In this document: positions 31,972 to 33,323 of the stretch, in pieces
Layout: the number at the start of each line of letters is the position of its first letter
Numbering within the stretch: the stretch's first letter is position 1
DNA from: Escherichia phage 235Ecol030PP
Reading direction: 5' to 3' (one strand)
DNA: 64,000 bases
Sequence record: PP355091.1
Made by a program: the position numbers and the translations under genes
Notes under the pieces: model-generated
Told to the model about the DNA's origin: nothing
Seen by the model: only the letters and a program-made list of their open reading frames with translations
Databases searched by the model: none

Positions 31972-32550
31972 TTAGGAATTACGGGCTGCATTAGCAACGG
32001 CGTAAGCGTACTGGACATTAGCGTCTTTAAACGTACCTTTAGAGGTATCTATTTCTGCCTTAAAGCCGCCTTTAGCCATAGCATCGGCAAATTCTTTACG
32101 GAAAGCCATTGCATCAAGACCTTTCCATGATGATTTATGCTTGGCAAATTCAAGACCAGCGTAGTTGACAGCCTTAGCTAATTTATTATCAATAACCCAT
32201 TTACCGGCTTTAGGCACAAACTTCGGGCCTTTTTGTTTAGAGAACAGTTTTAAATTCCAGCGACGAAGGTCACTGTCGGCTTTAACAAAAGCTGCGTCTA
32301 AGTTACTAGCAACAACATCTTCAATATGAGCAAATTTAAGTCCGTCAACTTCAATATTTAGATCGTTACGCCAGCGAAGTCCTTCCCAAGCGAAGGCTTT
32401 AAAGTCGGAAGCCTTTGTAGCTAAGTACCGTTCAATAGGAGCTGTTTTAGGGTCAAAGCCGTTTCCCGATCGGTAGGTCCACTCATCTTTATTAATGCCT
32501 TTGGCCTTTACTATAGAAGCTTCGGCAATAAATTCTTGATAGGTTTTCAT
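31972..32550 (-). CDS. ipIII: Internal protein III-like head protein (capsid targeting sequence MKTYQEFIAEA)
   Basis: 192 aa; N-terminal MKTYQEFIAEA is the classic T4 internal-protein targeting/cleavage leader; early promoter upstream. Confidence 0.75.
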   Translation of the reverse strand: MKTYQEFIAEASIVKAKGINKDEWTYRSGNGFDPKTAPIERYLATKASDFKAFAWEGLRWRNDLNIEVDGLKFAHIEDVVASNLDAAFVKADSDLRRWNLKLFSKQKGPKFVPKAGKWVIDNKLAKAVNYAGLEFAKHKSSWKGLDAMAFRKEFADAMAKGGFKAEIDTSKGTFKDANVQYAYAVANAARNS

Positions 32551-32578
32551 GTGTTTCCTTGTTTGTTTTGATAGAGTA

Positions 32579-32608
32579 ATTATACCATATTAATACTTAA
32601 GCGTAAAC
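32579..32608 (-). promoter_or_regulatory. T4-type early promoter upstream of ipIII
   Basis: -35 GTTTACG (32602-32608), 17-nt spacer, -10 TATAAT (32579-32584). Confidence 0.55.
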
Positions 32609-32611
32609 CGT

Positions 32612-32872
32612 TTAAGCTTTACCGCCAGAAATAATTCCGAAGTTGTTAAAATCATATCCAATATCGTCAACATCTACTTTAGGACTTGCTACAACATAAG
32701 CAATTTCACTACATTTTGCACAGGTGTTGATTTCTTTACCATCGCCACCTAAGAAAGAATACCCATTACGTTTTAATGAGCCAAAGTCTTCCGCATCATC
32801 AATGAAAGCTTTAACTTTAAATTTAGAACCTTTGGCATCTGCTTCAACGATAAATTCTTGATACATTTTCAT
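32612..32872 (-). CDS. Internal-protein-like gene (IPII position), CTS leader MKMYQEFIVEA
   Basis: 86 aa; leader matches IP consensus; rest unrelated to ipIII. Confidence 0.6.
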   Translation of the reverse strand: MKMYQEFIVEADAKGSKFKVKAFIDDAEDFGSLKRNGYSFLGGDGKEINTCAKCSEIAYVVASPKVDVDDIGYDFNNFGIISGGKA

Positions 32873-32878
32873 TTTTCC

Positions 32879-32982
32879 TTAGTAAATTGATTTACCAAAG
32901 TATTTGTACCAAGTCGGACGTTGATCAATTTTTTCATCTAAGCGTGCTTGATTTATCGCAATGGACGCTTCGGACGGGTCAT
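32879..32982 (-). pseudogene. denV: denV (endonuclease V, pyrimidine-dimer glycosylase) remnant: start codon plus C-terminal about 34 codons, out of frame
   Basis: Promoter, GGAGGAAATT and ATG ACC CGT (MTR) intact, stop after 9 codons; shifted frame encodes [32 protein letters not shown] matching recalled T4 DenV C-terminus. Confidence 0.7.
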
Positions 32983-33009
32983 AATTTCCTCCAAGTAGTT
33001 GATGAATGT

Positions 33010-33039
33010 ATAGTATCAAAACCCTTGGAGGAAGTAAAC
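33010..33039 (-). promoter_or_regulatory. T4-type early promoter (denV promoter)
   Basis: -35 GTTTACT (33033-33039), 17-nt spacer, -10 TACTAT (33010-33015). Confidence 0.55.
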
Positions 33040-33041
33040 AA

Positions 33042-33323
33042 CTATTTTTCTGAAGCGCCTGAAATATATTTTTCAAGACGTTGTTTCATCAGCGAGCCGT
33101 TCTTAGCGATTTCTTCCGGTTTATCGCACATACGCAACAAGGCTTCAAGCTTAACGATATCACTGGTGCGCTCAAATTTGCGAGTATCTATCTTACTAGC
33201 AAGTTCAGAAATACGTGCTAATAGACTTTCAGCTTCAACCAAAGCTGCACCTAGCTTAGTTGCAAATGTGTCAGTAGCTTCGTTAAGAATAGATTCTGAT
33301 AAAAATTCACTATATGTTTTCAT
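33042..33323 (-). CDS. Internal-protein-like gene with CTS leader [11 protein letters not shown], translationally coupled to lysozyme gene
   Basis: 93 aa from second Met; ATG overlaps e stop (ATGA); IP-type leader. Confidence 0.6.

Follow-up and report, generated by a model that had tools for sequence, protein, structure and literature searches.

A T4-type internal-protein locus with a partly deleted denV gene in Escherichia phage 235Ecol030PP, in a gene order common among relatives of T4

The best described internal proteins (IPs) are those of phage T4, in which one group of ip genes follows the lysozyme gene in the order e, ipIII, ipII, denV, vs.8. Each of Ip1, Ip2 and Ip3 blocks a GmrSD type IV restriction enzyme of its own, without cross-protection (Silas et al. 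2025, PMC12373910); IpIII inhibits GmrSD-ECOR17 specifically (PMC12373910), T4 requires it for growth on ECOR17, and leaderless IpIII expressed in the cell suffices (Srikant et al., PMC9391042). The IpIII leader directs targeting mainly via residues 4 and 7 and processing via residues 8 and 10, and the prohead protease gp21 cleaves after (L/I)-x-E (review of Black's work, PMC9026906). Here we describe the corresponding locus in a 64,000-nucleotide (nt) segment of Escherichia phage 235Ecol030PP (record PP355091.1), which we refer to as the window, on which all coordinates are given, and which sequence comparison places in Tequatrovirus. All genes of the locus lie on the minus strand and in transcription order are nudE, e, IP93, a denV remnant, IP86, ipIII and vs.8 (Table 1), where IP93 and IP86 are IP precursors of 93 and 86 amino acids (aa). 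We consider it likely that this is the e-proximal ip locus of a T4-like phage with glucosylated hydroxymethylcytosine (hmC) DNA, in a layout common to many relatives other than T4, which encodes injected anti-defence IPs and in which denV has been inactivated.

Three minus-strand open reading frames (ORFs) between e and vs.8, i.e. within one T-even ip locus, begin with MKTYQEFIAE (192 aa), MKMYQEFIVE (86 aa) and a related leader (93 aa); gene 21 falls outside the window. Six-frame translation of the window yields three matches to the motif MK.Y.EF[LI].E, against an expectation of about 4.6e-5 from base composition and none in 300 shuffles, so the leaders are not due to chance; all three matches are ORF starts, on a single strand, within 1.35 kb. 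Y4, F7, position 8 and E10, the positions mapped experimentally in T4 IpIII, are kept in each of the three, and at the sequence level each carries (L/I)-x-E at residues 8-10 (IAE in IpIII, IVE in IP86, LSE in IP93). An earlier sequence-only reading of this DNA had taken the three ORFs for internal-protein genes on account of their leaders, and this is borne out by the conserved leader positions, by matches of IP93 and IP86 to PHROG 'internal head protein' families, and by the assignment of the 192-aa ORF to IpIII and of IP93 to Ip5. Pfam, NCBIfam and PADLOC scans of the three IPs returned no matches. From the leaders we infer that IP93 and IP86 would be packaged and cleaved.

The same reading had described the cassette as rearranged, which is correct relative to T4 and to T4 only, as the order is widespread and found in a second genus. 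Lutter, W143, Phaginator and G8 (Tequatrovirus) and Gaprivervirus VR20 all share with the window the order e, Ip5-like gene, denV, one or more IP cassettes, vs.8. Lutter (e, IP93, denV, IP86, ipIII, vs.8) differs from the window in that denV is intact and IP86 frameshifted, W143 (e, IP93, denV, IP86, a 104-aa ORF, ipIII, ipII, vs.8) in the additional 104-aa ORF and ipII, and VR20 (e, ip5, denV, ip10, an IP86 homologue, ip7, vs.8) in an intact denV, the extra IP genes ip10 and ip7, the lack of ipIII and a 14-nt overlap of e and ip5; fD1 has e, denV, a gene for a 157-aa head protein and vs.8. Comparison of the locus across T-even phages, as had been proposed, thus shows that it does vary, with at least six layouts (T4, fD1, W143, Lutter, VR20 and the window). 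The accompanying statement that IP loci are hypervariable holds for the locus, which differs between phages, and fails for the 93-aa IP, which is at least 95% identical in 232 records. Over the 2.1-kb locus the window shares 98.7% DNA identity with Shigella phage Phaginator, in one piece that includes the denV deletion, and 98.4% with E. coli phage G8, and the 93-aa gene is present in about 238 of the 893 records that match the locus. The locus is already known, being present and largely annotated in many public genomes. Since the window order is common and present in another genus, and since the 3' end of T4 e resembles the relic of an ip5 start (see below), the comparison suggests that T4, more likely than its relatives, has the derived form at this locus. 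Leader-coding DNA is conserved between different ip genes (36-42-nt matches, 92-95% identity), and cassettes may plausibly be shuffled by recombination between these repeats, an idea for ip genes that is said to go back to Repoila et al. in 1994.

The 192-aa product, described beforehand as ipIII-like, is IpIII: it is 94% identical to the T4 protein over its full length, with 12 substitutions, an identical MKTYQEFIAE leader and a place in the same e-proximal ip locus. It differs in position, lying downstream of IP86 and not directly after e, and being followed by vs.8 and not by ipII, a gene that comparison with T4 did not find in the window locus. By orthology with T4, IpIII of the window would be an inhibitor of GmrSD-ECOR17.

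IP93 is 48% identical to T2 Ip5 over 84 aa (E = 5e-23), which places it in the Ip5 family. The Ip5 proteins of T2, T6 and RB51, encoded in an ipI-locus cassette, share with IP93 48-51% identity, the same three-part layout, the same leader, in which residues 13-15 form a conserved (I/L)-x-E, and the conserved C-terminal motif EIAKNGS.MK.RLE. Compared with these proteins IP93 is 9 residues longer and has an additional L-S-E site at residues 8-10, and it is a paralogue that abuts e, whereas the T2 gene sits between 57B and the tRNA genes in the other ip locus. Candidate gp21 sites in IP93 follow E10 and the conserved E15. Cleavage at the second is probable, because the motif at residues 13-15 is conserved in the family (LNE in IP93, ITE in T2 Ip5) and matched by LTE in IpI, and because the VR20 orthologue, annotated ip5, lacks E10, and mature IP93 probably starts at A16. 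The protein has an isoelectric point (pI) near neutral and was predicted by AlphaFold2 from a shallow alignment to be all-helical, with a predicted local distance difference test score (pLDDT) of 72.7 and a predicted template-modelling score (pTM) of 0.35. The Phaginator record has a TTG start at 33338 (98 aa), which we judge to be less probable than the ATG because the leader would then be internal, displaced by 5 residues from the N-terminus. At 80% identity or above IP93 was found by tblastn in 238 phage records, with a lysozyme gene beneath the match in nearly every annotated match listed. It is 89% identical to its VR20 orthologue where e is 79% identical, with ratios of nonsynonymous to synonymous substitution rates (dN/dS) of 0.14 for both IP93 and e. 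This unusual conservation, exceeding that of e, suggests a recent lateral spread of a segment comprising the 3' end of e and IP93.

The window lysozyme retains catalytic E11, D20 and T26, and at the junction of these two genes its last residues alone differ from the T4 end, reading ...TGTWKAYI (162 aa) where T4 has ...TGTWDAYKNL (164 aa). The sequence-only reading was right both on this difference and on the overlap of the last IP ATG with the e stop, which takes the form of an ATGA and is annotated identically, at 4 nt, in Lutter and W143. Alignment of the four junctions shows that, compared with VR20 and T4, 4 nt have been inserted just before the IP93 ATG in the window and Lutter; this insertion shifts the frame, so that e stops at the overlapping TGA and ends in KAYI. 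In VR20 the lysozyme ends ...KAYENL, and e shares its final 14 nt, in a different frame, with the first ip5 codons. The T4 end ...DAYKNL is encoded by TATAAAAATCTATAA, which aligns with TATGAAAACCTATAA of VR20, containing the ip5 start. On this short alignment the 3' end of T4 e looks like a relic of a lost ip5-like gene that once abutted e. At the level of codons, the last of T4 e, TAT AAA AAT CTA TAA (L005:4504-4520), align with TAT GAA AAC CTA TAA of VR20 (L010:3608-3625), the equivalent stretch of the window being 33320-33345. Synonymous divergence (dS) from VR20 is 0.50 for IP93 and 1.24 for e overall, and the comparison points to a putative recombination breakpoint inside e. We also observed that similarity to VR20 is much greater in the 3' third of window e and in IP93 than in the 5' part of e (33320-33600 vs. 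L010:3608-3900), and that window e has a stretch of residues in common with VR20 and not with T4. The overlap, the gene order and the lysozyme end are ordinary results of a common layout and a 4-nt indel.

IP86, an unnumbered IP, matches PHROG 2667 'internal head protein' (E = 1.5e-17) and PHROG 35655 (E = 1.2e-24), and its predicted mature form of 76 aa is acidic (pI 4.9). The gene has its own AGGA box, which overlaps the denV stop. It was found in 217 phage records, including Gaprivervirus and Salmonella T4-like phages, with 71% identity and a dN/dS of 0.24 between the window and VR20 copies, and 95-98% identity to intact copies in Shinka, B1.1 and G8. An exhaustive HMMER search with mature IP86 against 1.84 billion representative proteins returned six matches, five of which were fragments or relatives from T4-like phages, and essentially no relatives outside this group; the sixth, a cadherin-repeat protein, was rejected, its score having been inflated by nine repeats. 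Homology to IpII was likewise rejected, as the similarity to T4 IpII is confined to the 11-residue leader. From a shallow alignment AlphaFold2 predicted a mixed alpha/beta protein (pLDDT 62).

That a denV remnant is flanked by IP genes proved real, as it lies between the IP ORFs. Alignment to the intact denV of Lutter shows a 310-bp deletion between two 7-bp AATTATG repeats, one of which includes the denV start codon and the other lies near codon 104, with the junction within the repeat at 32980-32986; as 310 is not a multiple of 3, the frame is broken. The denV promoter, leader hairpin and ATG are retained. Compared with T4 denV, the window is homologous in the promoter, leader hairpin, start codon and last ~33 codons (82% DNA identity to the T4 3' end), and differs in the missing 310 bp, the broken frame and the loss of the catalytic N-terminal region, so that no intact ORF of ~138 aa was found. 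In T4 endonuclease V this N-terminal region holds the Thr2 alpha-amino nucleophile and Glu23. Of the 139 positions in the PHROG 1183 endonuclease V profile the remnant matches 100-138 only, and a Pfam scan of it gave no match. A probe across the junction, 57 nt long here and 367 nt in intact alleles, which confirms the 310-bp figure, found an identical junction in 15 records from 12 named phages (G8, G4498, BF15, Phaginator, F27, JM17, FL18, B1.1, JM10, FL12, FL44 and FL23). Judged by its reading frames, denV is a pseudogene here, and the fragment annotated 'endonuclease' in some records cannot be active; we rejected the 65-aa TTG ORF at 32879-33076 that bears this annotation, as it starts inside IP93 and covers the DenV C-terminus alone. 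With denV, the pyrimidine-dimer glycosylase gene, inactivated by deletion, the phage should be UV-sensitive (v-minus). The interval from denV to IP86 (32612-32982) seems to be a deletion hot spot. Among metagenomic relatives, P0012 has the first 30 DenV residues joined to the last 24 of IP86, P0018 and P0004 have in-frame internal deletions of IP86, and P0011 is a further relative.

T4 e is translated from late transcripts alone, by means of a hairpin over its Shine-Dalgarno sequence. The window has a comparable hairpin, with two exact late-promoter boxes in or next to it, and T4 has the same two boxes upstream of e; no other exact late box was found between nudE and vs.8, nor in the T4 cluster. 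The cassettes have a T4 early-type promoter (GTTTAC...TAnnnT) directly after the preceding stop codon. That of denV is set within a hairpin (core stem 32986-33033, -20.7 kcal/mol, z = -3.4) that pairs with the denV Shine-Dalgarno GGAGG; this promoter is homologous to one annotated upstream of denV in Lutter, and the design resembles the T4 denV leader. The ipIII promoter corresponds in position to one annotated upstream of ipIII in Lutter. More generally, we observed that promoters of the cluster lie in or beside an inverted repeat able to pair with the downstream ribosome-binding site, as in the e leader (compared with T4 L005:3360-3410 and L005:3750-3830). The arrangement points to promoter-dependent unmasking of translation as a trait common to the genes of the locus. 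IP93 has no promoter of its own and a weak Shine-Dalgarno sequence. In late transcripts, which start at the two late promoters in the e leader hairpin, the e ribosome-binding site would be unmasked, and these transcripts would extend across the cluster; IP93 would then be translated by reinitiation after termination at the ATGA overlap. Through such coupling IP93 would acquire the late timing of e, as a prohead component requires.

As a working mechanism, the N-terminal capsid-targeting sequence would bring each IP precursor into the prohead scaffolding core, where gp21 would cut after E10 in IpIII and IP86 and probably after L13-N14-E15 in IP93, and the mature proteins would remain in the head to be ejected with the DNA. 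In the cell they would act stoichiometrically, before phage gene expression, on nucleases that attack modified DNA. The window phage encodes a DNA alpha-glucosyltransferase, so its DNA, containing glucosylated hmC, should be a substrate of GmrSD-type enzymes. Whilst IpIII would block the two-gene GmrSD of ECOR17 type, IP93 and IP86 would by analogy most likely inhibit other first-response defences, each with narrow specificity. The sequence-only reading had described IPs as injected anti-restriction proteins, citing T4 IPI against GmrSD, and this agrees with the distinct GmrSD targets of Ip1, Ip2 and Ip3 (PMC12373910). Its further idea that the two short IPs target uncharacterised defences is reasonable, by analogy, and already stated in the literature for the whole class. 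More specifically, IP86 and/or IP93 may be injected inhibitors of first-response defences outside the tested GmrSD groups, directed at another type IV or modification-dependent nuclease or at a non-nuclease system, a proposal that we hold only tentatively.

Several observations weigh against the working mechanism set out above. When ip4-ip10 of T4-like phages, an Ip5 among them, were tested against 15 GmrSD groups, no inhibition was reproducible (PMC12373910). Foldseek against PDB gave no match at E < 0.1 for IP93 or IP86 (weak ubiquitin-like or helical matches are not interpreted), and confidence in the structure predictions of both is low to moderate. The one virion proteome of a T4-like phage that was examined comes from fD1, which has another locus layout and no IP93 or IP86 gene, and late read-through past the denV-leader hairpin is an assumption of the model. 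IP86 is frameshifted or internally deleted in Lutter, UFV13, SF2-1, P0004, P0007 and P0018, and being so often broken it must be dispensable, and in the window it has Cys at two positions occupied by Tyr and Arg in relatives. The lack of reproducible anti-GmrSD activity in ip4-10 and of a recognisable domain or fold would also suit a role of IP93 and IP86 as packaged but passive cargo, filling space, scaffolding or packing DNA with no specific host target, which was the historical view of IPs as head fillers. All three T4 IPs tested are, however, specific restriction inhibitors; the acidic charge of IP86 and near-neutral charge of IP93 argue against a simple DNA counter-ion role for either; and the dN/dS values against VR20 show both to be constrained as proteins, a purifying selection on the mature bodies which, together with frequent gene loss and replacement, fits host-specific accessory functions. 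We therefore regard passive cargo as unlikely.

The damage to IP86 in relatives, together with the Y-to-C and R-to-C changes at otherwise conserved positions and the lack of an intact upstream denV frame, whose stop overlaps the IP86 Shine-Dalgarno, could instead mean that one or both small ORFs, IP86 especially, no longer function here and are decaying cassette remnants beside a broken denV. We give this little credence, because the IP86 ORF runs unbroken over its full length and keeps the whole leader, the IVE site and the AGGA box, because its 95-98% identity to intact copies extends to Shinka, B1.1 and G8, which apparently have the same denV deletion, and because its dN/dS is low. Variability and breakage of IP86 are the pattern expected of a dispensable, host-specific accessory gene. 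The sequence-only reading had also spoken of an IP gene fused to the end of the lysozyme gene, which the junction contradicts, as the two genes have 4 nt in common in different frames. Their juxtaposition at the ATGA is all that favours a single fusion protein, made by frameshifting or read-through, that would carry lysozyme into the head or tether the IP. A TGA in the e frame separates the genes, the leader would become internal although it acts as an N-terminal propeptide, the VR20 genes overlap by 14 nt in different frames with e keeping a T4-like ...YENL end, and Lutter, W143 and VR20 are annotated with two separate genes; on the differing frames and the VR20 overlap we rejected the fusion, which has next to no chance of being correct. 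For IP93 and IP86 we keep to injected, stoichiometric inhibition of an early-acting defence as the mechanism with the best support.

Table 1. Features of the locus and the glucosyltransferase gene, in window coordinates
Feature	Position	Strand	Remarks
nudE	33846-34301	minus	
Late-promoter boxes	33835-33842 and 33822-33829	minus	TATAAATA, exact; upstream of e, in or next to the e hairpin
Hairpin sequestering the e ribosome-binding site	33804-33844	minus	RNA fold -14.9 kcal/mol, z = -4.2; 0 of 200 shuffles as stable
Gene e, T4-type lysozyme, 162 aa	33320-33808	minus	95% identity to T4 e; Pfam Phage_lysozyme E = 1.8e-13
ATGA overlap of e stop and IP93 start	33320-33323	minus	ATG 33321-33323, TGA 33320-33322, different frames
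IP93, Ip5-family internal head protein precursor, 93 aa	33042-33323	minus	PHROG 3499 'internal head protein' E = 1.2e-46
T4 early-type promoter upstream of denV	32986-33039	minus	GTTTAC 33034-33039, TACTAT 33010-33015
Residual denV start	32953-32982	minus	ATG (32980-32982), 8 codons and a stop; MTRPKRPLR
denV 3' remnant, last ~33 codons	32879-32977	minus	Pseudogene fragment; frame differs from that of the denV ATG
IP86, internal head protein precursor, 86 aa	32612-32872	minus	Leader MKMYQEFIVE/A
Early-type promoter upstream of ipIII	32579-32607	minus	TTTACG, 17-nt spacer, TATAAT, extended TG; scan 10/12 positions
ipIII, internal protein III precursor, 192 aa	31972-32550	minus	Leader MKTYQEFIAE/A; PHROG 5341 E = 1e-116
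vs.8 homologue	31267-31806	minus	179-aa ORF
DNA alpha-glucosyltransferase	3290-4492	minus	Pfam AGT E = 2e-258

Beyond ipIII, a 165-nt stretch leading to vs.8 (31807-31971, minus strand) shares 96% identity with the 5' part of the T4 vs.8 coding sequence (219 aa; T4 L005:2690-2945). The window, Phaginator and Lutter have a 9-nt deletion with a TAG that cuts off this 5' part, so that vs.8 starts at an internal ATG (MRTFLTG...); the longer N-terminus may be specific to T4, or the window form may be shortened. An RNA gene in this gap was rejected in favour of an untranslated relic of the longer T4 vs.8 5' end, and an Rfam scan of 29000-36000 at E <= 1 gave no match. The other ip locus has a fourth IP gene at 41800-42084 (minus strand), downstream of 57B-like ORFs; it encodes 94 aa with a longer leader, MKTYQEFTSTTNASTLTE/ATLTSEV..., and LTE at residues 16-18, and is probably ipI. 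Eight tRNA genes (Arg, Met, Thr, Ser, Pro, Gly, Leu and Gln) lie at 38899-40256 on the minus strand, and between tRNA-Arg and the others is a 221-aa ORF (38978-39643, minus strand) that begins MFHYIYKITNKINNKIYIGAHS and looks like a candidate GIY-YIG, SegB-like homing endonuclease.

As a discovery the locus is small, since near-identical loci are deposited and annotated and the IPs are already published as a diversifying family of injected anti-restriction proteins, and the question of what the Ip5-like and 86-aa IPs target is general to the field and not specific to this window. For the family, the comparison suggests that T4, the reference phage, is derived at this locus, the last codons of its lysozyme gene resembling the start of a lost ip5. 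Phages with the denV deletion allele form a recognisable subset for which UV sensitivity is predicted. As both are common in T4-like coliphages that are candidates for therapy, IP93 (~238 genomes) and IP86 (~217) are good candidates for host-range and anti-defence screens, and, if they do inhibit first-response defences, this would extend the picture of one IP for one defence beyond Ip1-3.

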